Shown here: one piece after another, positions 1,285-40,444 of the stretch
How the letters are laid out: each line of letters begins with the position of its first letter
Numbering within the stretch: position 1 is the stretch's first letter
Virus record (IMG/VR): IMGVR_UViG_2579778961_000003
Strand: one strand, 5' to 3'
DNA from: a virus
Lineage: Duplodnaviria > Heunggongvirae > Uroviricota > Caudoviricetes
Length of the DNA: 40,444 nucleotides
Translations under genes and position numbers: made by a program
The notes under the pieces: generated by a model
Told to the model about the DNA's origin: nothing
The model's input: only the letters and a program-made list of their open reading frames with translations
Databases searched by the model: none

Positions 1285-1328
1285 ATGAATAACGGGCGAT
1301 AACATAGACAATCCTTTCTTTTCAAAGA

Positions 1329-1355
1329 CGTCGGCACATTGCCGGCGTTTTTTTT
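1329..1355 (+). terminator. Rho-independent terminator of aroA
   Basis: GC hairpin cgtcggca-cat-tgccggcg followed by a T8 tract, about 45 nt after the aroA stop. Confidence 0.6.
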
Positions 1356-1454
1356 CGGACCTTGTGGGGTATTTTTATTAATGGTAGCGTTAATTATCAA
1401 TGTAACTTGTTGATACATAATGTTTATATATAATTAATCAACGGATGATTCACA

Positions 1455-1540
1455 TGAAGAATGATGCGCCGCGCGATAAATGCACTCTATCTTGTGCGAT
1501 AAATGGCATCCACGCGGCGTTTCATTATTTGAAAAAGAAT
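1455..1540. other. Mu-type prophage end (attR-like) with repeated putative transposase-binding sites
   Basis: Begins 5'-TGAAG; CGATAAATGC/CGATAAATGG repeated at 1474-1483 and 1497-1506 and GTTTCATT...GAAAAAG at 1518-1537, resembling the Mu right end as I recall it (TGAAGCGGCGCACGAAAAACGCGAAAGCGTTTCACGATAAATGC). Confidence 0.55.
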
Positions 1541-2112
1541 TACATTTCAGGTTGCGTTATGACAGTCCCAACAGGGTGATAGCGGTAGATCGTTGACAGT
1601 CCAATATCATAGATAATTGCCAGCCGCTTTCTGTCATACCCTTTCTGGAGCAATCTTGCGATCTGCTCATGCTGCTCCTTCGTCAGTTTCGGGCGACGTC
1701 CTCCAACTCTTCCTTGTGCTCGCGCAGCAGCCAGTCCAGCCAGCGTGCGCTCAACTATCAGTTCACGCTCCATTTCTGCCAGTGCACCCATCATATGAAA
1801 AAAGAACCTTCCCATCGGAGTGCTGGTATCGATTGAATCCGTCAGACTGCGAAAATTGACACCTTTTGCGCGTAGCTCTTCTGTGAGAGCAATGAGGTGT
1901 TTCATTCTTCTACCCAACCGATCCAGCTTCCAGACCACCAATGTATCCCCTCTTTTAAGGCACTTTAAAGCGCGTTTCAGGCCTGGTCGTTCCGACTTGG
2001 TTCCGCTCATTTTGTCCTCAAAAATCTGTTCACATCCTGCGCACATTAATGCATTGCGTTGCAAATCTGTGTTTTGGTCATTTGTTGACACACGTATGTA
2101 GCCAATCAGCAT
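1540..2112 (-). CDS. gin: Serine recombinase, DNA invertase (Gin/Pin/Cin/Hin family)
   Basis: N-terminus MLIGYIRVSTNDQ (catalytic Ser motif) and C-terminal HTH; start placed at the internal ATG 2112 with AAGGGAG RBS rather than the ORF-track start at 2241. Confidence 0.85.
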   Translation of the reverse strand: MLIGYIRVSTNDQNTDLQRNALMCAGCEQIFEDKMSGTKSERPGLKRALKCLKRGDTLVVWKLDRLGRRMKHLIALTEELRAKGVNFRSLTDSIDTSTPMGRFFFHMMGALAEMERELIVERTLAGLAAARAQGRVGGRRPKLTKEQHEQIARLLQKGYDRKRLAIIYDIGLSTIYRYHPVGTVITQPEM

Positions 2113-2166
2113 TAAAAATACTCCCTTTTGAGTGGTTAAAGTACTGAGATAATGTGGGGAGGATTT

Positions 2167-2192
2167 GAGAGATAAACGTTGGTTTGGGGGAA
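2167..2192. other. Invertase crossover site (gix/hix-like), left
   Basis: 26-bp site GAGAGATAAACG TT GGTTTGGGGGAA with AAAC-NN-GTTT centre typical of hix/gix sites; outer half is identical to the right site in inverted orientation. Confidence 0.55.
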
Positions 2193-2645
2193 GGCTCTGC
2201 ATTGCCTGTTGGTGTACCGGTTCCATGGCCCACCGCCACACCGCCAGCAGGCTGGTTACAGTGCAACGGAGCTACGTTCACCAAAGAACAATATCCTGTT
2301 CTGGTCAGAGTCTACCCGACCCTCCGTCTTCCCGATTTGCGCGGTGAGTTTATCCGTGGATGGGACGGTGGTCGCAAGGTTGATACCGGGCGTGCGCTAC
2401 TTTCATTTCAGGAAGGGACTATCGTATCCGGTTTTGATGATAATGATACCGGAGATATCAGTTCGCTCGGCTCTACACAATACGGATTTGGTGACGCTTT
2501 AACCTCTAATCAACTGGGGGTCTTAAATGGCAAAAAGTGGATATTTGATGCATCCTCTAAAGGTGCACAAAGATATGACTGGTGGGCTTATGTATCAGCT
2601 CGCCCCCGCAATATCGCATTTAACTATATCGTGAGGGCGGCGTGA
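2184..2645 (+). CDS. Alternative tail-fibre C-terminal cassette (Sv'-like), promoterless until inversion
   Basis: First 70 aa nearly identical to residues 278-346 of the fibre at 3266..4603 (GEGSALPVGVPVPWPTATPPAGWL...), then a divergent C-terminus ending NYIVRAA. Confidence 0.7.
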   Translation: MGEGSALPVGVPVPWPTATPPAGWLQCNGATFTKEQYPVLVRVYPTLRLPDLRGEFIRGWDGGRKVDTGRALLSFQEGTIVSGFDDNDTGDISSLGSTQYGFGDALTSNQLGVLNGKKWIFDASSKGAQRYDWWAYVSARPRNIAFNYIVRAA

Positions 2646-2651
2646 TACCGT

Positions 2652-3266
2652 TCAGCCGGCAAGCGCCAGTGGCGCTTCCGGCCAGCTGATTTCAGGTGCC
2701 TTGCTGATATCCAGTGCGTTCAGCTCGTCGATATAATCCAGCACGGCGTTCAGTTTTGCCGTTTCTTCTGGTTTCAGACTGCGACCAGCACGCAGTTTGA
2801 GGTTGATAAGATCGACGGACGCCATCGCCTGTTTCACCCGTTGCTGGCGTTGCTGTCTGGCAACCTCCAGTTCTGCGGCTCGCTGCCGTTCAGTATCGGT
2901 TACCCACGCCTCACCGTTCCAGGTATCCCATGGCGTGGCTGGCTGTTTTGTGGTGGTGTCCGCCGGGTAATCACCCGGTTGGGTAATCAGAACGGGGTTA
3001 CCGTTCTCCGTGCTGTATACCGTCTCGCCGCGGTGATCAGGCACATGCTCCCACCCGTTCAGCGTGGCAGTCCGGCAAACCACGTAACCCGAAATTGCTT
3101 CCGGCGGTGCATCGGCGCACGAATGTGCCGGAGTACCCACCCCAAGGGCGAGATACTCCACAGAGGATGAGGTGTATTCCCGGGTTTCCTCGTCATAGTG
3201 ATATACAGTGATATCGCCCGCTACAGTGGCGATACCGTTTTCATCCAGAACTGCAGTGTTACTCAT
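2652..3266 (-). CDS. Tail fibre assembly protein (chaperone, Mu U / P2 G-like)
   Basis: 204 aa ORF immediately downstream of the fibre gene, inside the invertible segment; position and size typical of tail fibre assembly proteins. Confidence 0.75.
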   Translation of the reverse strand: MSNTAVLDENGIATVAGDITVYHYDEETREYTSSSVEYLALGVGTPAHSCADAPPEAISGYVVCRTATLNGWEHVPDHRGETVYSTENGNPVLITQPGDYPADTTTKQPATPWDTWNGEAWVTDTERQRAAELEVARQQRQQRVKQAMASVDLINLKLRAGRSLKPEETAKLNAVLDYIDELNALDISKAPEISWPEAPLALAG

Positions 3267-4603
3267 TAAACTGCCCTCACAATGTAATTAAGTGCAATGC
3301 TACGGGGTCTGACAGTGATACCCTTCGCATACCCGCTTCTGATAGAGGTCAGAATAGTAGCCTGCATACCATTGTCTGACATTGCCACGACAGGATCGCT
3401 GAATGTTGTCCCGTCCGGCATTTTAAAGCTGCCCTCACGAAGGTCTGTAATGGAATCTTCATTGTTGAATCCCATGCCGACTATCCCCGAGGTTCCCGTA
3501 GTGTCCTGGTTATAATAATCCAGCATTGCTGTTCTTAACAGCGTTGCCCCTTGTGCGGACAGCAACTTACGTCCTGTATCAACTTTGCGCCCGTCGTCCC
3601 ATCCACGGATAAACTCACCGCGTAAATCGGGAAGACGGAGGGTCGGGTAGACTCTGGCCAGAACAGGATATTGTTCTTTTGTAAAGGCGCGCCCGTCGCA
3701 CTTTAACCAGCCTGCTGGCGGTGTGGCAGTGGGCCACGGAACAGGTACACCAACGGGCAGCGCCGAGCCTTCCCCCAAACCAAGGTAATTGAGGACATCT
3801 TTTATACTGCCCTTAGCGATAATAGCGCGACCAATAGCTGTAAGGGTTGCCAGCTCTGCGCGGTCTGCTCCGGTAAAATAAGGCAACCGATCTGCTGCAG
3901 TGGCAAGTCCTGCCAGAGCAGTGAGCGTGGCATCTGCCGGTTGTTTTCCGTTTGCCAGATCGTATGCAGCCTTGACCGCTTTCGGTGTGGCGGCCAGTAT
4001 TTCAGACGTGCTGTTGATGGCACTGCTCAATTGTACGGTGCCTTTTGCCGTCAGCGAGGCAGCAGGCACTCCCGTTATCTGACTCCACGGGTGAGTGTGG
4101 CTGACGGGCGCCTTGCCGGCTGCAAGGTCGTATGCAGCCTTGACCGCCTTCGGCGTGGCAGCCTCAGTTTCTGATTGACTGTCCGTGGCGCTGCTCAGTT
4201 GTACGGTGCCTTTTGCCGTCAGTGAAGCCGCAGGCACTCCCGTTATCTGACTCCACGGGTGAGTGTGGCTGGCAGGCGCCTTGCCGGCTGCCAGGTCGTA
4301 TGCAGCCTTGACCGCTTTTGGTGTGGCGGCCAGCGTTTCAGAGGTGCTGTTGGTGGCACTGCTCAGTTGGGTGAACCCCTTAGCTGTCAGTGTCGCGTCC
4401 GGGTGGTTACGGGAACGTACGTGTTCAGCCAGTGACTGTGCGGCTTCCTCCGTTTTCTTCTTCAGCCATTTCGTCCTGTTTGCCAGTTGCCGGGGGGCTC
4501 GATTTGATATCCCGTCTGCACCACCCAGAACCGGATCTGATGTCTCCAGTTGATAGATATTTTCTTCCCACTTTTCTGTTTCATTCAGGTTTCCCATAAT
4601 CAA
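3266..4603 (-). CDS. Tail fibre protein (Mu S / P2 H-like) with variable C-terminus
   Basis: 445 aa; internal 56-aa repeats with the ...SETLAATPKAVKAAYDL... motif known from Mu/P1/P2 fibres; C-terminus ends NYIVRAV. Confidence 0.85.
   Translation of the reverse strand: MIMGNLNETEKWEENIYQLETSDPVLGGADGISNRAPRQLANRTKWLKKKTEEAAQSLAEHVRSRNHPDATLTAKGFTQLSSATNSTSETLAATPKAVKAAYDLAAGKAPASHTHPWSQITGVPAASLTAKGTVQLSSATDSQSETEAATPKAVKAAYDLAAGKAPVSHTHPWSQITGVPAASLTAKGTVQLSSAINSTSEILAATPKAVKAAYDLANGKQPADATLTALAGLATAADRLPYFTGADRAELATLTAIGRAIIAKGSIKDVLNYLGLGEGSALPVGVPVPWPTATPPAGWLKCDGRAFTKEQYPVLARVYPTLRLPDLRGEFIRGWDDGRKVDTGRKLLSAQGATLLRTAMLDYYNQDTTGTSGIVGMGFNNEDSITDLREGSFKMPDGTTFSDPVVAMSDNGMQATILTSIRSGYAKGITVRPRSIALNYIVRAV
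3770..3795. other. Invertase crossover site (gix/hix-like), right
   Basis: TTCCCCCAAACC AA GGTAATTGAGGA, about 19/26 matches to hix as recalled; inverted relative to the site at 2167-2192. Confidence 0.55.
3944..4393 (-). repeat. In-frame 168-bp tandem repeats (about 2.7 copies) inside the tail fibre gene
   Basis: Protein repeat SLTAKGTVQLSSA...TPKAVKAAYDLAAGKAP.SHTHPWSQITGVPAA at residues 71-126 and 127-182, partial third copy 183-220. Confidence 0.8.
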
Positions 4604-5178
4604 CTGCTCCCGTGGTTATAACTGCCATCATGGATGGCGGTATTGTTATAGCGAATGGCCACAGACTGATACTCCAGGCTGGCCAGATGGCAGCGGGCCG
4701 GTGCAAATGCAGCCAGCGTCTGACGCAGCATCGCGGCCTGATCGTTAGTAATGGGCTGTTTCAGAATAACGCGATAAACTGCCCAGGCGGCTGCATCTCC
4801 ATGAACAAACAGTCCGTTATAGCTGCGATTGCCGTCGTAACTGAGACGACCTGTGCCTTCAATCAGATCCACTTCACCAAAGCCAAAACGGCGGATAACT
4901 TCCCGGATTGACCACGGCGTCCCTTTATACCGGTGCAGTTCGATGGCTGCTTTTATAAGCATGCGGCGAACATCGTCCGATTCCGCCAGCTCCCAGCCAT
5001 CGCCAGACAGTGAGAACTGCTCGCCCAGCCATGGCAGCGCGGAACTGTCGACGATATCGACGAGAAAGACCATCAGTACGCTCAGGTCGATGTTATCCAG
5101 CCGTCCTGCCAGTCTTCCCAGCGTCCTGAGACTGATATCACCCTCAAGCGGTGGCGGGAGTTGTAATGGCTCAGTCAT
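4600..5178 (-). CDS. Baseplate/tail protein (P2 gpI-like)
   Basis: 192 aa; position between J-like gene and fibre gene as in P2-type baseplate modules. Confidence 0.65.
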   Translation of the reverse strand: MTEPLQLPPPLEGDISLRTLGRLAGRLDNIDLSVLMVFLVDIVDSSALPWLGEQFSLSGDGWELAESDDVRRMLIKAAIELHRYKGTPWSIREVIRRFGFGEVDLIEGTGRLSYDGNRSYNGLFVHGDAAAWAVYRVILKQPITNDQAAMLRQTLAAFAPARCHLASLEYQSVAIRYNNTAIHDGSYNHGSS

Positions 5179-27791: not shown

Positions 27792-28515
27792 AACTGCTGC
27801 CTCCCCATGTGAGATATCGCGGTGCCAGTTCGCGCAGGATGCGCTGCGGATAATGGCGGTTCTCCCGCCAGCTGGCCGCATTGCGTCCGGCATTCACCGT
27901 GGCGACATGTCCGAACCAGCGGGTGCTGTCCAGACCTTTCTGTGATGCAAGCCGCCTGTCCCGTTGTACCCAGCCCAGACCACCGTTATAGCCCGACAGT
28001 GTCATGGCCATACGCTCGCAGTCACTGGCGGCGCTGACACGCTGCCACAGCCAGCGGTCATAGCTGACCAGCGCCCGGATAGCCCATGCCGGATTAAACG
28101 GCTCACGACTGCTCAGCATCGGTATCAACTGGCTTATCCAGTCGGCAGTGGCAGGCATGAACTGCGCCAGTCCCTGAGCGCCAGCCGGCGAGATCGCATC
28201 AGGTCGCCAGCCGCTTTCCTGATGCAGTTGCGCGGCGAAATCGGCCACCGGCGCAGACAGTCCCCATTCAAGCCGGGCATTACGGATCACATCATCGCGA
28301 TACTGCAGCGCAGCCTGCGGAGGTTGTGCTGCGCATGCCTGGCTGAAAAAGCCGCCACACCAGAGCAACATTGCGACAAAGAATACCCATGCCATATGAA
28401 CCAGAAAGGTCCCGGCGCGGACTGACAGGCGTTCGGTTCTGATGAAGACCCGAAAGGCTTCGAAAGCCAGTTTCAGGGACATGCATACAATCCAGGTGAT
28501 CTGCGGCCAGTTCAT
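27775..28515 (-). CDS. Endolysin, lytic transglycosylase (SLT domain)
   Basis: SLT motif ...QESGWRPDAISPAGAQGLAQFMP...; hydrophobic N-terminal region may be a signal-anchor; start codon uncertain (28515 or 28395). Confidence 0.85.
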   Translation of the reverse strand: MNWPQITWIVCMSLKLAFEAFRVFIRTERLSVRAGTFLVHMAWVFFVAMLLWCGGFFSQACAAQPPQAALQYRDDVIRNARLEWGLSAPVADFAAQLHQESGWRPDAISPAGAQGLAQFMPATADWISQLIPMLSSREPFNPAWAIRALVSYDRWLWQRVSAASDCERMAMTLSGYNGGLGWVQRDRRLASQKGLDSTRWFGHVATVNAGRNAASWRENRHYPQRILRELAPRYLTWGGSSCVASG

Positions 28516-28517
28516 GA

Positions 28518-28868
28518 TTAAAGCCCCATCGCAACAGCCAGGCAGACCGCTGCAACAATCAGTGCACGGCGGATTAACGCAGCAGAAAACACCAGGTGAA
28601 GGCCGGTCTGTACCGGGAAACGCCCTTCAGCCATCAGCCTGTCGTCATGTTTCAGGTACTGACCGGGACGGGCTTTGGGGAAGAGCGAACGGTCAAGCCA
28701 GTAACCCAGCACTGCTGCCAGCGTGATGAGTGCCAGCTTGTAGATCACAACAGGCAGCTGCTGTGGTGAGACCAGAGCGATGGTGCCCAGCAACAGCACT
28801 GAGGTCAGCAGCCAGCCGCTGAGGCGAGGTTTTTTAACAGGGGGAATGAATTTTTTCAGGTTTTTCAT
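28518..28868 (-). CDS. Putative holin (3 predicted TM segments)
   Basis: Start at ATG 28868 with AAGGAG RBS; three hydrophobic segments; first gene of the lysis cassette immediately upstream of the endolysin. Confidence 0.55.
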   Translation of the reverse strand: MKNLKKFIPPVKKPRLSGWLLTSVLLLGTIALVSPQQLPVVIYKLALITLAAVLGYWLDRSLFPKARPGQYLKHDDRLMAEGRFPVQTGLHLVFSAALIRRALIVAAVCLAVAMGL

Positions 28869-33655: not shown

Positions 33656-35425
33656 ATGACCCCGGCACTGACTGAAAAACTGGTTGAAACAGCCCGCGCG
33701 GCACGTGACGCGGGGCATGGTAAACGCGGTGCAATATACGACGCTGCCTGTGCTGAACTTGGCATGTCCCGCGCCACTCTGCTGCGCAGGCTGAAGGAGG
33801 TATCTGTGACTGATAAACGCAAAAAACGCGCCGATGCCGGGCGCAGCGCCCTGACCCGCGACGAAGCCGCGCTGATATCTGCCACACTGCGTGAGGCCAC
33901 CCGCAAGAACGGTAAGCGTCTCTATTCCATCGCAGATGCAGTGGAAACCCTGCGGGCTAACGGCTTTATCACCGCAGGCAGAACAGATGAAACCACCAGT
34001 GAGTTTTTCCCGTTGTCTGAAGATGCCATCAGCCGTGCTCTGCGTAACTATGGCCTGCACCCGGAACAACTGGATGCCCCTGCACCACATACCGAAGTGG
34101 CCAGTCTGCATCCCAATCATGTCTGGCAGATTGACGCCTCACTCTGCACGCTTTACTACCTGAGCAATGGACATAAAGGGCTGCAGGTGATGGACAGCGC
34201 GAAGTTCTACAAGAACAAGCCCGCTAACCTTGCCCGTATCGCCAGTGACCGCGTGTGGAGTTACGAGATTACCGACCATGCCAGCGGCTGGATTTACGTT
34301 GAGTATGTGACGGGCGCGGAATCAGGTGAGAACCTGTGTTCTGTGCTTATCAACGCCATGCAGGAGCGTGGCGGCGCAGACGTGCTGCACGGCGTGCCGA
34401 AAATACTCTATCTCGACCCCGGCTCGGCAAACACCGCGGGTATGACGAAAAACATGTGCCGCTCACTGGGCATCGACCTGATAGCGCACAAGCCGCATAA
34501 CGCCCGCGCCACCGGACAGGTGGAAAAGGCGCGTGACATTATCGAACGCAAGCTGGAGCCGGGTCTGAAGTTCCGGCCGGTTCACAGTCTGGAAGAACTC
34601 AACGCGCTGGCCGCGAAATGGCGCAGCCACTTTAACGCCACGGCTGTTCACAGCCGCCACGGTAAAACCCGCACGGATATCTGGCTGAAGATTACTGCTG
34701 AGCAGCTGAAAAAAGCGCCTTCCGTTGAGGTATGTCGTGAACTGGCTGTGGCGGCACCAGAACTCCGCAAAGTCACGCCAAAACTTCGTGTCTCGTTCCG
34801 GGGCACTGAATTTGACGTATCAACGGTACCGGGCGTACTGGTTGGTGAAAAACTGATGATTACCCGTAACCCATGGCGCAGCGATGTGGCACAGGTGGTT
34901 CTGACCGGTGAGGACGGCCACGAGACGTTCTTCCTGGTCGAAGAGGTCAGAAAGAACGAGTTTGGCTTTGCTGAAGGCGCGGCGGTATTTGGCGAAAGTT
35001 ACAAAGCCCTGCCGGAAACCCCGGCACAGATGGCGGCAAAAGAAACCGAAGCGCTGGTTACCGGTACAGACAACGCCGCAGATGCAGCCGCCGCACGCAA
35101 GGCGAAGGCGCTGCCGTTCGGCGGGCGGCTTGACCCGTATAAACATATCGACGACACCACACTTCCGGCCTATATGCCGAAGCGTGGTCAGGCCTCTGAC
35201 GTACGCGGGCCGCGCACTGAACAACGTCCCATGACTCATGTGGAGGCCGCGAAAGCCCTGCGCGATAAGTTCAGCGCCGACGGCCTTACCTGGACGCCGG
35301 AACATTACCGCCAGTTAACGGCACAGTACCCGGACGGCGTACCGGAAGCCGCACTGGATGAAGTCATGGCCACGCTGACCACACCGGCCCGCAGCAGTGT
35401 TATCAGCATTGTTAACGGCAACTGA
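33656..35425 (+). CDS. DDE transposase (Mu A-like)
   Basis: 589 aa; N-terminal DNA-binding region; integrase-core-like HPNHVWQIDAS segment; followed by an AAA+ B-like gene. Confidence 0.8.
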   Translation: MTPALTEKLVETARAARDAGHGKRGAIYDAACAELGMSRATLLRRLKEVSVTDKRKKRADAGRSALTRDEAALISATLREATRKNGKRLYSIADAVETLRANGFITAGRTDETTSEFFPLSEDAISRALRNYGLHPEQLDAPAPHTEVASLHPNHVWQIDASLCTLYYLSNGHKGLQVMDSAKFYKNKPANLARIASDRVWSYEITDHASGWIYVEYVTGAESGENLCSVLINAMQERGGADVLHGVPKILYLDPGSANTAGMTKNMCRSLGIDLIAHKPHNARATGQVEKARDIIERKLEPGLKFRPVHSLEELNALAAKWRSHFNATAVHSRHGKTRTDIWLKITAEQLKKAPSVEVCRELAVAAPELRKVTPKLRVSFRGTEFDVSTVPGVLVGEKLMITRNPWRSDVAQVVLTGEDGHETFFLVEEVRKNEFGFAEGAAVFGESYKALPETPAQMAAKETEALVTGTDNAADAAAARKAKALPFGGRLDPYKHIDDTTLPAYMPKRGQASDVRGPRTEQRPMTHVEAAKALRDKFSADGLTWTPEHYRQLTAQYPDGVPEAALDEVMATLTTPARSSVISIVNGN

Positions 35426-35435
35426 GGAGGGAAAC

Positions 35436-36602
35436 ATGCTGGTACTGAAGCAGCAACTGAAAGAGGCCCGTATTCCACAGGCGGTGGTGGCGAGAGCTGT
35501 CGATGTTTCTGAGGCCACGCTGGCCCAGATTGTGAATCATAACGCGTGGCCCCGCACCAGCCCCGGAGAAGTGCGCCGGCGTCTTGCGTCCTGGCTGGAA
35601 AGTCAGGGGATTGATACAACGAAGAGTTTTGATGCTGTACAGGGCGCGGCCACGCCCCGTACAGCGGGTACCACAGATAAAACGAGCCTCAGTGAGGAAG
35701 AGAATATGTTACTCAAAAAACAGGTGTTATTTCCAGCAACCAAAAAAGCGTTTGGTCTTTTCCGTGACCCGTTCGCCGACGAAGCCATGCAGGGTTCTGA
35801 TGATGTGTTCACCACCCCGGACATTCGCTACGTGCGTGAGGCGCTGTACCAGACAGCCCGTCATGGTGGGTTTATGGCCGTCATCGGTGAGTCCGGTGCG
35901 GGTAAATCCACGCTGCGCCGCGACCTGACTGAACGTATCAACCGCGAGAATGCGCCGGTAATTGTTATCGAGCCATACATCATCGCTATGGAAGACAACG
36001 ATGTGAAAGGGAAAACCCTGAAGGCAGCAGCTATTGCCGAAGCCATTATCAGTACCATCGCACCACTGGAAAGCATCAGACGCAGTCAGGACGCCCGTTT
36101 TCGCCAGTTGCATCGCGTCCTGAAAGACAGCAGCCAGGCGGGGTTCAGCCACGTTCTGGTGATTGAGGAGGCCCACAGTCTGCCCATTCCGACACTGAAA
36201 CACCTCAAACGCTTTTTTGAGCTGGAGTCCGGTTTCAAAAAACTGCTGTCCATCGTGCTGATTGGCCAGCCGGAACTGGCGACAAAACTGTCTGAACGCA
36301 ATATGGAAGTCCGTGAAGTCGTTCAGCGCTGTGAGGTGGTCGAACTTCTGCCTCTGGACAATAACCTTGAAGAATTTCTGACGTTCAAACTGCAACGGGC
36401 CGGTAAACAGCTGACGGACATTATGGACGCCGGTGCAGTGGATGCCATACGTGCCCGCCTGAGCAATCCGGGAAGTCACCGTAAAAATATGGTCAGCCTG
36501 CTGTATCCGCTGGCCGTCAGTAACCTGGTAATAGCCGCCATGAATCTGGCCGCTGAAATCGGGGTTCCACAGGTCAACGCTGACGTTGTCAAAGGGGTTT
36601 AA
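35436..36602 (+). CDS. Transposition ATPase (Mu B-like, AAA+)
   Basis: Walker A GESGAGKST, N-terminal HTH-like region; start placed at ATG 35436 with GGAGGG RBS. Confidence 0.75.
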   Translation: MLVLKQQLKEARIPQAVVARAVDVSEATLAQIVNHNAWPRTSPGEVRRRLASWLESQGIDTTKSFDAVQGAATPRTAGTTDKTSLSEEENMLLKKQVLFPATKKAFGLFRDPFADEAMQGSDDVFTTPDIRYVREALYQTARHGGFMAVIGESGAGKSTLRRDLTERINRENAPVIVIEPYIIAMEDNDVKGKTLKAAAIAEAIISTIAPLESIRRSQDARFRQLHRVLKDSSQAGFSHVLVIEEAHSLPIPTLKHLKRFFELESGFKKLLSIVLIGQPELATKLSERNMEVREVVQRCEVVELLPLDNNLEEFLTFKLQRAGKQLTDIMDAGAVDAIRARLSNPGSHRKNMVSLLYPLAVSNLVIAAMNLAAEIGVPQVNADVVKGV

Positions 36603-36604
36603 TA

Positions 36605-36874
36605 ATGAAATCCACCACAGGTATCAACCAGCAAATCAGCAAAGTGCAGTCAGCCATTATGGCGCTTAAGGCGACGAACACGGATGTACAAAGCATCACC
36701 ATCAGGGGTAACAAACCTGTCATCCGCGTTTCCCGGAGTGCGCATTGCATGCGCATGCTTGAGCAGGGAAAGGCCTGTTATCTGTATACCGGACATGACC
36801 ACAGGGGATATTTCCGTCAGGGCGTTTTCGAACTGCACGGCTGTCGCGTCGTGTGGCCGGAATCTTTGTGGTAA
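36605..36874 (+). CDS. Hypothetical early protein
   Basis: 89 aa ORF immediately after B-like gene. Confidence 0.4.
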   Translation: MKSTTGINQQISKVQSAIMALKATNTDVQSITIRGNKPVIRVSRSAHCMRMLEQGKACYLYTGHDHRGYFRQGVFELHGCRVVWPESLW

Positions 36875-36901
36875 TCAGCACAACTGGAGAAATCATAAAA
36901 A

Positions 36902-37432
36902 ATGGCAAAAAGTACAAAAGGTGCAAAACGTATCAAGGCCGCAGCAGCACTCTGGGTGCCGGGGACACGTGAAGAGGTCATTGAGGGAATCAGACTACTC
37001 GGTGACGCACAACGTGAACTGGTCAGGGCTGAAACAGAAATGAATGACGCCATTGGCGATATCACCGCACGTTATGCCCCGCTCACCGAGAGCCTGAAAA
37101 AACGCATGGCCGAACTGCAGTCCGGTATTCAGACATGGTGTGAGGCACACCGTGATGAACTGACCGGCAACGGGAAGGTGAAGTTCGCTAACCTCACCAC
37201 CGGCGAGGTGCAGTGGCGAAACCGTCCGCCATCAGTCAGTATCCGTGGGGCGGATAATGTTATTGAATTACTGAGACGTCTGGGGCTTGAGCGCTTTATT
37301 CGTGTAAAAGAGGAAATAAATAAAGACGCTATCCTGAATGAAAAAGAGGCCGTGAAAAATATTCCCGGTATTTCCATTAAAAGCGACATTGAGGATTTTT
37401 CAATAATTCCTTTTGAGCAGGATGTGCAGTAA
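36902..37432 (+). CDS. gam: Host-nuclease inhibitor Gam-like protein
   Basis: 176 aa, size and coiled-coil character of Mu Gam; located in semi-essential early region after B. Confidence 0.65.
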   Translation: MAKSTKGAKRIKAAAALWVPGTREEVIEGIRLLGDAQRELVRAETEMNDAIGDITARYAPLTESLKKRMAELQSGIQTWCEAHRDELTGNGKVKFANLTTGEVQWRNRPPSVSIRGADNVIELLRRLGLERFIRVKEEINKDAILNEKEAVKNIPGISIKSDIEDFSIIPFEQDVQ

Positions 37433-39633: not shown

Positions 39634-40083
39634 ATGCAGAAAAAACGCCTGATACAGCTTATCCATATTGCCCGTAATGAACTGGGTATGGATGAAGACA
39701 CCTACCGCCAGATGTTACAGGGGCTGACCGGTAAAGCCTCAACCAAAGGAATGGATACCACACAACTAAACTGCGTGCTGGAATCCATGAAAAAGAAAGG
39801 CTTTCGCGTTAAACCAGCCAGAAAAGCCAGCTCCGGTTTACCGCTTGATAACCATCCGCAGTCCAGGAAAATTCGTGCGCTATGGCTTGAAATGGCTGCT
39901 GCCGGCATTGTTCGTGACCGTTCAGAAAATGCATTAGCGAGGTGGATCAAGCGGGAAACGGGCATCAGCGCCCTGCGCTGGCTCAGTACTGAACAGGCAA
40001 GCAGTGTTATTGAGAAACTGAAGAAGTGGCAGCGCAGAGCTGCGGGAGTCAAACATGAGCGACCTGAATCAGTTTCGAAGTAA
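39634..40083 (+). CDS. GemA-like regulatory protein (Mu gp16-like)
   Basis: 149 aa; N-terminal LIQLIHIARNELGMDEDTYRQML pattern; located immediately upstream of the Mor-like gene as in Mu. Confidence 0.55.
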   Translation: MQKKRLIQLIHIARNELGMDEDTYRQMLQGLTGKASTKGMDTTQLNCVLESMKKKGFRVKPARKASSGLPLDNHPQSRKIRALWLEMAAAGIVRDRSENALARWIKRETGISALRWLSTEQASSVIEKLKKWQRRAAGVKHERPESVSK

Positions 40084-40444
40084 GGGGCCGGAACTCCTGG
40101 TGGAACTGGCACAGCATACCTCTGAGACCGTTCGCGAGATTATTGATATTGAGCCCGAAGTTGCCGACCAGATTGGTCAGGCCGTCGCGAACCGAATGAT
40201 GCAGGTCTGGGGCGGGCAAAACGTTTATTTCCCGATGGGCATGGTATGGAAGGTCAGTCAGCGCGACCGGGAAATCTTCAGGGAGTTTAACGGACGCAAC
40301 CACCACGAACTGGCCCGCAAATTTGGTGTTTCGCTTCAGTGGGTCTACAGCGTGGTTAAGCGGGTAAGAAAAGAAGAACTGGATCGGATGCAGGGCAAGC
40401 TATTTGCTGATGAACCCGATGCAGATACGGAGAAAAAAGAGTAA
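40055..40444 (+). CDS. mor: Mor/C-family transcriptional activator (Mor-like)
   Basis: 129 aa with GGQNVYFPMG ... FNGRNHHELARKFGVSLQWVYSVV, matching the Mor/C family pattern as recalled; complete ORF ends at window end. Confidence 0.7.
   Translation: MSDLNQFRSKGPELLVELAQHTSETVREIIDIEPEVADQIGQAVANRMMQVWGGQNVYFPMGMVWKVSQRDREIFREFNGRNHHELARKFGVSLQWVYSVVKRVRKEELDRMQGKLFADEPDADTEKKE

Follow-up and report, generated by a model that had tools for sequence, protein, structure and literature searches.

We analysed a 40,444-nucleotide (nt) stretch of viral DNA (the window; IMG/VR record IMGVR_UViG_2579778961_000003) that is 100% identical to Escherichia coli KE54, focusing on the tail-fibre locus near its start. 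The element is a BcepMu-like transposable prophage, named Phi2 in the sequence type 131 (ST131) strain EC958. Read from the end next to the host gene aroA, the locus contains a serine recombinase, an open frame for an alternative fibre tip (Sv3), the tail-fibre assembly chaperone gene tfa, a 443-amino-acid (aa) fibre, and the baseplate genes gpI and gpJ. An initial annotation, made from the letters of the sequence, had described the region as an invertible segment with one chaperone gene, and we evaluated that description against genome collections and related loci.

The full fibre open reading frame (ORF; 3266-4597, minus strand, 443 aa) joins a constant part, Sc (3784-4597, minus strand), to the expressed tip Sv2 (3266-3781, minus strand, 172 aa, core type T1). 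Sc starts at an ATG at 4597, matched Phage_fiber_2 (5e-56), and included three tandem 168-nt (56-aa) repeats of that family at 3945-4448, which are 100%, 84%, and 61% identical to the reference copy. Fibres from related plasmids had more copies of the 56-aa repeat and lengths of 628 aa or more. The silent tip Sv3 (core type T2; 2181-2645, plus strand) was open from the crossover site to its stop at 2643-2645, and its 153-codon frame (2184-2645) contained a Collar domain (2.5e-15) and zero stops or frameshifts. Between the two tips lies tfa (2652-3266, minus strand, 204 aa), immediately downstream of the fibre, with a start that overlaps the Sv2 stop (TAATG) and a stop only 6 nt from that of Sv3. 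The predicted protein matched Pfam Caudo_TAP (PF02413; 5.6e-27 over residues 79-199) and PHROG 105 (3e-87), and was ~60% identical to HK97 Tfa gp29. Its gene has a Shine-Dalgarno sequence of its own (GAGGG, 7 nt upstream of the ATG), so that only a transcript is needed for its expression. Searches of the window with two Tfa types (tblastn) returned no second tfa, and an ORF antisense to tfa (2841-3170) matched no phage family in a PHROG scan. The minus-strand fibre C-terminus and chaperone, and the convergent plus-strand C-terminus at 2184-2645, were thus arranged as initially annotated.

RefSeq/PGAP divided the 443-aa fibre ORF, which is intact, into a 206-aa ‘phage tail protein’ and partial pseudogene pieces, and the same misannotation appeared in every isomer and genome examined. 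The split annotation is an artefact of the cassette structure and the internal repeats.

Two 26-bp sites in inverted orientation bound the variable region. The site on the pin side (position C; 2167-2192, minus orientation) reads GAGAGATAAACG TT GGTTTGGGGGAA on the plus strand, with its core at 2179-2180, and TTCCCCCAAACC-AA-CGTTTATCTCTC on the minus strand. The second site (position A; 3770-3795, plus orientation), where the constant part of the fibre meets the variable one, reads TTCCCCCAAACC AA GGTAATTGAGGA, with its core at 3782-3783. Both share the same 12-nt cassette-side half-site and AA core, and the resulting 14-mer, TTCCCCCAAACCAA, occurred at these two sites only in the 40-kb window, even with 2 mismatches allowed (chance expectation 0.39). 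The pair has the build of Din-family sites, with imperfect 12-bp half-sites around a 2-bp core that is the same in both. Its likeness to hix and gix, claimed at the outset, was borne out for gix by 9/12 matches between the cassette-side half-site and that of Mu. Across related arrays the head half-site TTC[CT]CC[CT]AAACC was conserved, and the core was AA in 70/73 sites. The two crossover sites are at the outer ends of a 229-nt inverted repeat with 86% complementarity, which extends the near-identical sequence noticed earlier just inside the sites; its left arm (2176-2404) is the conserved tail-collar start of Sv3 and its right arm (3558-3786) that of Sv2.

The pin-like serine DNA invertase gene (1540-2112, minus strand, 190 aa) is not part of the invertible DNA; its 5' end adjoins the segment. 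Its product contained Resolvase (PF00239; 8e-51) and HTH_7 (PF02796; 1e-12) domains, belonged to PHROG 125 (DNA invertase) in the PHROG scan, and matched the Mu Gin structures 3UJ3/4M6F over residues 1-181 (phmmer, E=1e-93). The 5' region of pin had nucleotide homology to gin. A small neighbouring ORF (1445-1579) gave no chaperone match in the PHROG scan.

We reverse-complemented positions 2179-3783 in silico (cuts at 2178/2179 and 3783/3784) and searched the product against complete E. coli genomes. The synthetic flip of this 1,605-bp segment, initially put at about 1.6 kb, matched EC-TO143 (H58, NZ_LS999560) in one uninterrupted alignment of 3,401 nt at 100% identity. Both orientations occur, as the initial annotation had implied: 168 complete genomes had that of the window and 186 the flipped one. 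Esc2 was in a different state from CNR20191027 and Esc11, isolates that are apparently of one strain judging from near-identical chromosome lengths, with CNR20191027 the apparent parent of Esc2. In the window state Sc-Sv2 is followed by tfa, while in the flipped state (L006, L004) Sc continues in frame into Sv3 to form a 426-aa fibre, with tfa antisense to the fibre operon. The alternative cassette is therefore intact, and all fused fibre ORFs of the isomers were in frame.

Published data agree. Forde et al. 2014 (PMC4134206) found that the tail-fibre regions of the EC958 prophages Phi1, Phi2, and Phi4 assembled into alternative PacBio contigs, and saw both Phi2 orientations in EC958 PacBio reads. 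The site at 2167-2192 is letter-for-letter GAGAGATAAACGTTGGTTTGGGGGAA, the Phi2_3prime site in their Table 3, and the right half of the site at 3770-3795 is the Sc-side half of their Phi2_5prime (PMC4134206). A preprint on ST131 wound isolates describes fibre inversions and a ‘translocation’ in what is apparently the same Mu-like prophage. The phage record PhiKM was uninformative on the switch, as its assembly joins Sc to the other prophage end without the invertible region. We found no evidence contradicting inversion itself. The locus is a real DNA-inversion switch of the fibre tip, already published as ST131 Phi2. That the inverted repeat is instead immobile and simply left over from a fibre-gene duplication is so improbable as to be negligible: nothing speaks for it beyond the existence of the repeat, and against it stand the exact predicted recombinant in nature, the ~50:50 split of orientations among genomes, the differing states of apparently clonal isolates, and the long reads with both orientations.

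Most ST131 genomes listed or fetched contained 439 extra bp, which constitute a third cassette, Sv1, between Sc and Sv2. A third crossover site, TTCTCCTAAACC-AA-CGTTTCTATGCC, follows Sv1. Two of the three sites in this form are direct and one is inverted, which allows exactly four isomers, arranged in a cycle, with three alternative tips. All four were seen among the fetched loci. In two of them tfa is in sense, next to Sc-Sv1 (AR_451, Esc2, Esc4) or Sc-Sv2 (L017, L020, L032); in the other two it is antisense, next to Sc-Sv1 (JJ1886) or Sc-Sv3 (AR_0055, DFS.1, CNR20191027). The two-cassette form of the window was present in at least six genomes (H1, H2, H36, H58, H105, H107), in both orientations.

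The Sc/Sv2 junction of the window is a hybrid, in which a half-site and ~85 nt of Sv1 type are followed by ~140 nt common to both cassettes and then by Sv2-specific sequence. Direct repeats of roughly 214 nt are found at the starts of Sv1 and Sv2. This junction identifies the KE54 locus, by its sequence, as a two-tip derivative that lost Sv1 through homologous recombination between the direct repeats. Loss was homologous rather than site-specific because the Sv1-type half-site and ~85 nt were kept, which places the crossover inside the repeat; site-specific deletion between the direct sites A and B is excluded by the same retained sequence.

A Tfa protein search of IMG/VR and a plasmid collection yielded 37 viral loci and many phage-plasmids, and we mapped the invertase, collar cassettes, tfa, and Sc on these 37 loci and two plasmids. 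Each mapped locus had one pin and a single tfa, arranged as Sv> tfa> <Sv and accompanied by 0-7 single orphan cassettes, with up to nine tips per tfa. The cassette spacing of 440-515 nt left no room for other genes. Lineages with this layout were diverged, with Pin 77-100% and Tfa 55-100% identical. From these gene maps, a single tfa is the architectural norm of the module family and not a loss at this locus. The initial annotation was correct that the window, unlike the Mu G segment, has only one chaperone gene, for which we checked the S-U/U'-S' layout of Mu; as a peculiarity of this locus, the observation did not hold up, since one tfa is the family norm. Backbones of the larger arrays were 95-99% identical to a Punavirus (P1-like) genome. 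An identical Pin (WP_000904922.1) and a 99%-identical Tfa were encoded on 89-97-kb plasmids, which indicates that the module moves between phage types.

Some arrays had unusual layouts. In L018/L059 (IMGVR_UViG_2654587728_000014, ~41-50 kb of a 69.9-kb contig), two Sc parts, 95% and 51% identical to that of the window, face each other across one Sv-tfa-Sv segment that lacks an intervening pin. An inversion involving sites of two different prophages, or a misassembly, could have produced this layout. L038, L045, and L025 were flanked by two pin genes, or contained an additional partial tfa and Sc, which suggests fusions or rearrangements of neighbouring arrays. In Escherichia phage vB_EcoM-813R1 (L057, ON470617.2, Punavirus), the invertase was split into Hin1/Hin2, the fibre gene was in several fragments, and the tfa-bearing segment was antisense to the fibre. 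Either sequencing frameshifts or a switch that has decayed and become frozen could account for the splits.

Alignment of 80 distinct cassettes, whose cores fall into at least 15 types, showed conserved ends around a hypervariable core. Column identity was 0.7-0.95 over the N-terminal ~80 residues and 0.84-0.93 in the last strand, RPRNIAFNYIVRA, and 0.2-0.4 in the ~70-100 columns of the core. More distant T2 tips, found in non-array phages, precede a tfa of their own, a sign that tips of this kind generally use a chaperone. Relative to the window Tfa, the chaperones of two of those phages (L073 and L076) were 61-62% identical in the N-terminal 122 residues and 22-33% identical in the C-terminal part, and the N-domain of the more distant L077 Tfa was 36% identical. 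By analogy with TfaMu (PMC9608196), the N-domain is the fibre-binding part. A single Tfa that binds a frame common to all tips is plausible on this pattern of conservation, and the sharing of orphan core types between arrays with dissimilar Tfa types fits it too.

We consider it very likely that the locus is a host-range switch in which a Gin-family invertase inverts the fibre tips, the tips share one Tfa, and the window is a deletion derivative of the three-tip form. Pin would carry out inversion at the site cores and, by analogy with Gin, may work with a Fis-bound enhancer in the 5' coding region of pin. The alternative tips would alter the receptor recognised and hence the host range. One Tfa would serve all of them through the ~80 N-terminal residues and the C-terminal RPRNIAFNYIVRA strand.

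Several observations weigh against this reading, most of them concerning how tfa is expressed and which tip it serves. As tfa rides on the invertible segment, about half of the isomers have it antisense, and it was antisense to the fibre operon in 186/354 genomes. Sv3 is always convergent with tfa and so is never on the same late transcript; judged by this arrangement, the two could not be co-transcribed from the fibre operon. A scan of 1300-4700 found no promoter for tfa in the flipped state: there were 2 promoter-like sites vs 2.9 expected, neither near the segment. An alignment of 30 lineages revealed no conserved array-facing promoter in the spacer between pin and the site, which was of several unrelated types. 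Every Tfa type keeps one upstream tip type (T1, T7 or T13), and this fixed association could mark a cognate pair; plain linkage explains it equally well. Lastly, gam is split by an IS66-family element, and the KE54 copy of the prophage may be impaired as a result.

The sole sigma-70-like matches in the scanned interval were at 1371-1421, on both strands. Terminator-like hairpins numbered 3 in the same interval vs 3.8 expected; a hairpin at 2743-2762 (plus strand), downstream of Sv3, was weak and was given no weight as a terminator in view of these chance-level counts.

These points bear on an alternative in which the switch has decayed, so that the orphan tips (Sv3 here, Sv1 elsewhere) have lost their own chaperones, flipped particles are fibre-less or non-infectious, and the locus is partly dead. 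The antisense tfa for which no promoter was found and the disruption of gam by an insertion sequence (IS) element in this strain would both fit. So would the relatives of Sv3 in other phages. A tblastn search of the phage collection with the Sv3 core matched only the ST131 prophage record, and relatives were therefore taken from IMG/VR, where distant T2 tips (59-72% identity to Sv3) in non-array phages were each followed by their own tfa. Decay is nevertheless unlikely, since the one-tfa layout recurs across diverged lineages with up to 9 cassettes, nearly all full-length open frames, and orphan tip types have been exchanged between arrays, which points to continued use. Sandmeier and colleagues reportedly obtained, in 1992, functional host-range variants from the Min region of plasmid p15B.

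A further alternative holds that only Sv2 (T1) needs Tfa and that the shorter orphan tips fold alone or with host chaperones. Here the invariable position of tfa directly after the same tip type, overlapping its stop, is taken at face value, and there is a neat logical fit in that Sc-Sv2 always brings tfa into sense. The orphan core types T2, T3, T8, T9, and T10 are also found in arrays of two different Tfa types, which have only 55% identity between them. We regard chaperone independence as quite unlikely: the non-array T2 homologues of Sv3 retain a dedicated tfa, the Tfa N-domain is conserved across most Tfas of different tip types (56-62%; 36% for L077), and linkage alone explains the T1-tfa association.

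Under the preferred reading of one Tfa shared by all tips, Tfa in flipped isomers would be absent, scarce, or supplied from another promoter or another prophage, and flipped lysogens may then give fewer infectious particles. It is possible, though we hold the idea only tentatively, that Tfa is supplied independently of orientation, from a hidden promoter or co-resident prophages, or that inversion gates fibre assembly, so that infectious particles come from only some of the lysogens. We found no description of either arrangement in the literature for Din-type switches.

Outside the locus, the window starts in host DNA with aroA (1-1284), and the prophage end is between the aroA stop and pin, within 1285-1540. 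A strong hairpin with a T-run at ~1328-1355 resembles an aroA terminator. The minus-strand prophage genes, read leftwards, encode lysis, head, and P2/Mu-type tail functions, and the plus-strand early genes include a DDE transposase, a MuB-like ATPase, gam, and Mor. ISEc23 (IS66 family; tnpA, tnpB, and transposase; 34772-37188) is inserted in gam, whose pseudogene halves are at 34362-34742 and 37274-37432. A DNA adenine methylase gene is located at 27972-28736. The gene for the Mor-family late activator (40055-40444) is annotated as running to the final base of the window, which puts the other end of the prophage beyond it.

Fibre inversion by Gin-family invertases is textbook knowledge, and the Phi2 element was reported in 2014. 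The new context consists of the three-tip parent form, the deletion origin of the window, and the one-tfa norm of the family. Phi2 flipping makes near-identical ST131 genomes look structurally different, and the fibre gene, although intact, is broken up by annotation pipelines into fragments and pseudogenes. The module is also a natural library, with its many core types on one conserved frame, useful for host-range engineering of phages and tailocins. One invertible chaperone gene for several tips makes a small, experimentally tractable question.

Among known systems, Phi2 of EC958 is the same element, with the same pin-side site and the same Phage_fiber_2 plus Collar fibre (Forde et al. 2014, PMC4134206). 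It differs in having the three-cassette, 2,067-bp segment, compared to the two-cassette, 1,605-bp segment of the window. Forde et al. list only two Phi2 sites, whereas Phi2 has a third, and the mirror-image arrangement that they describe in general terms, with its cognate minor fibre gene, does not fit the one-tfa Phi2 (PMC4134206). Goldberg et al. 2014 (PMC4272514) described a PCR-verified ‘shufflon’ with three inverted repeats in a P2-like prophage of enteropathogenic E. coli (EPEC) E2348/69, where nested inversions of ~2,200 and ~1,800 bp produce four isomers with three alternative C-termini. Compared by description, the ST131 parent form follows the same logic at nearly the same sizes in a different prophage; the window, with two sites and two isomers, is simpler than the three repeats and four isomers in EPEC.

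The Gin/G segment system of Mu has a closely homologous invertase, whose gene borders the segment on the outside and points the same way as the fibre operon, and a constant N-terminal fibre part fused to alternative C-termini, all as in the window. It differs in its S-U/U'-S' layout with one chaperone per fibre, where the window and ST131 forms have one tfa for two or three tips; the two convergent pairs of tip and chaperone typical of Mu G and P1 C were absent from the window. The core dinucleotide is GA in Mu and AA here, and the collar-domain tips of ~150-170 aa contrast with the ~330-aa Sv parts of Mu. The R64 shufflon (Rci/sfx, PilV), in which several invertible cassettes supply C-termini for one adhesin-type gene, is an analogy only, given its tyrosine recombinase Rci, asymmetric sfx sites, and conjugative pilus adhesin, as opposed to the serine invertase of the window. 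The Min multiple-inversion system of plasmid p15B and P1-like phage-plasmids was reportedly described by Sandmeier, Iida, and Arber in 1990-92, and we infer that the P1-like phage-plasmid arrays are of this p15B Min type. Those arrays share with the window a Pin that is 84% identical, common collar tips and core types (T2/T3/T8/T9/T10), an embedded tfa, and 26-bp sites with an AA core. They differ in having 4-9 cassettes in Punavirus backbones, as opposed to two in a Mu-like transposable prophage, and a Tfa only 55% identical to that of the window. More than two sites and more than two tips, the features of a Min-type system, are found in the ST131 parent form, while the window has two of each.

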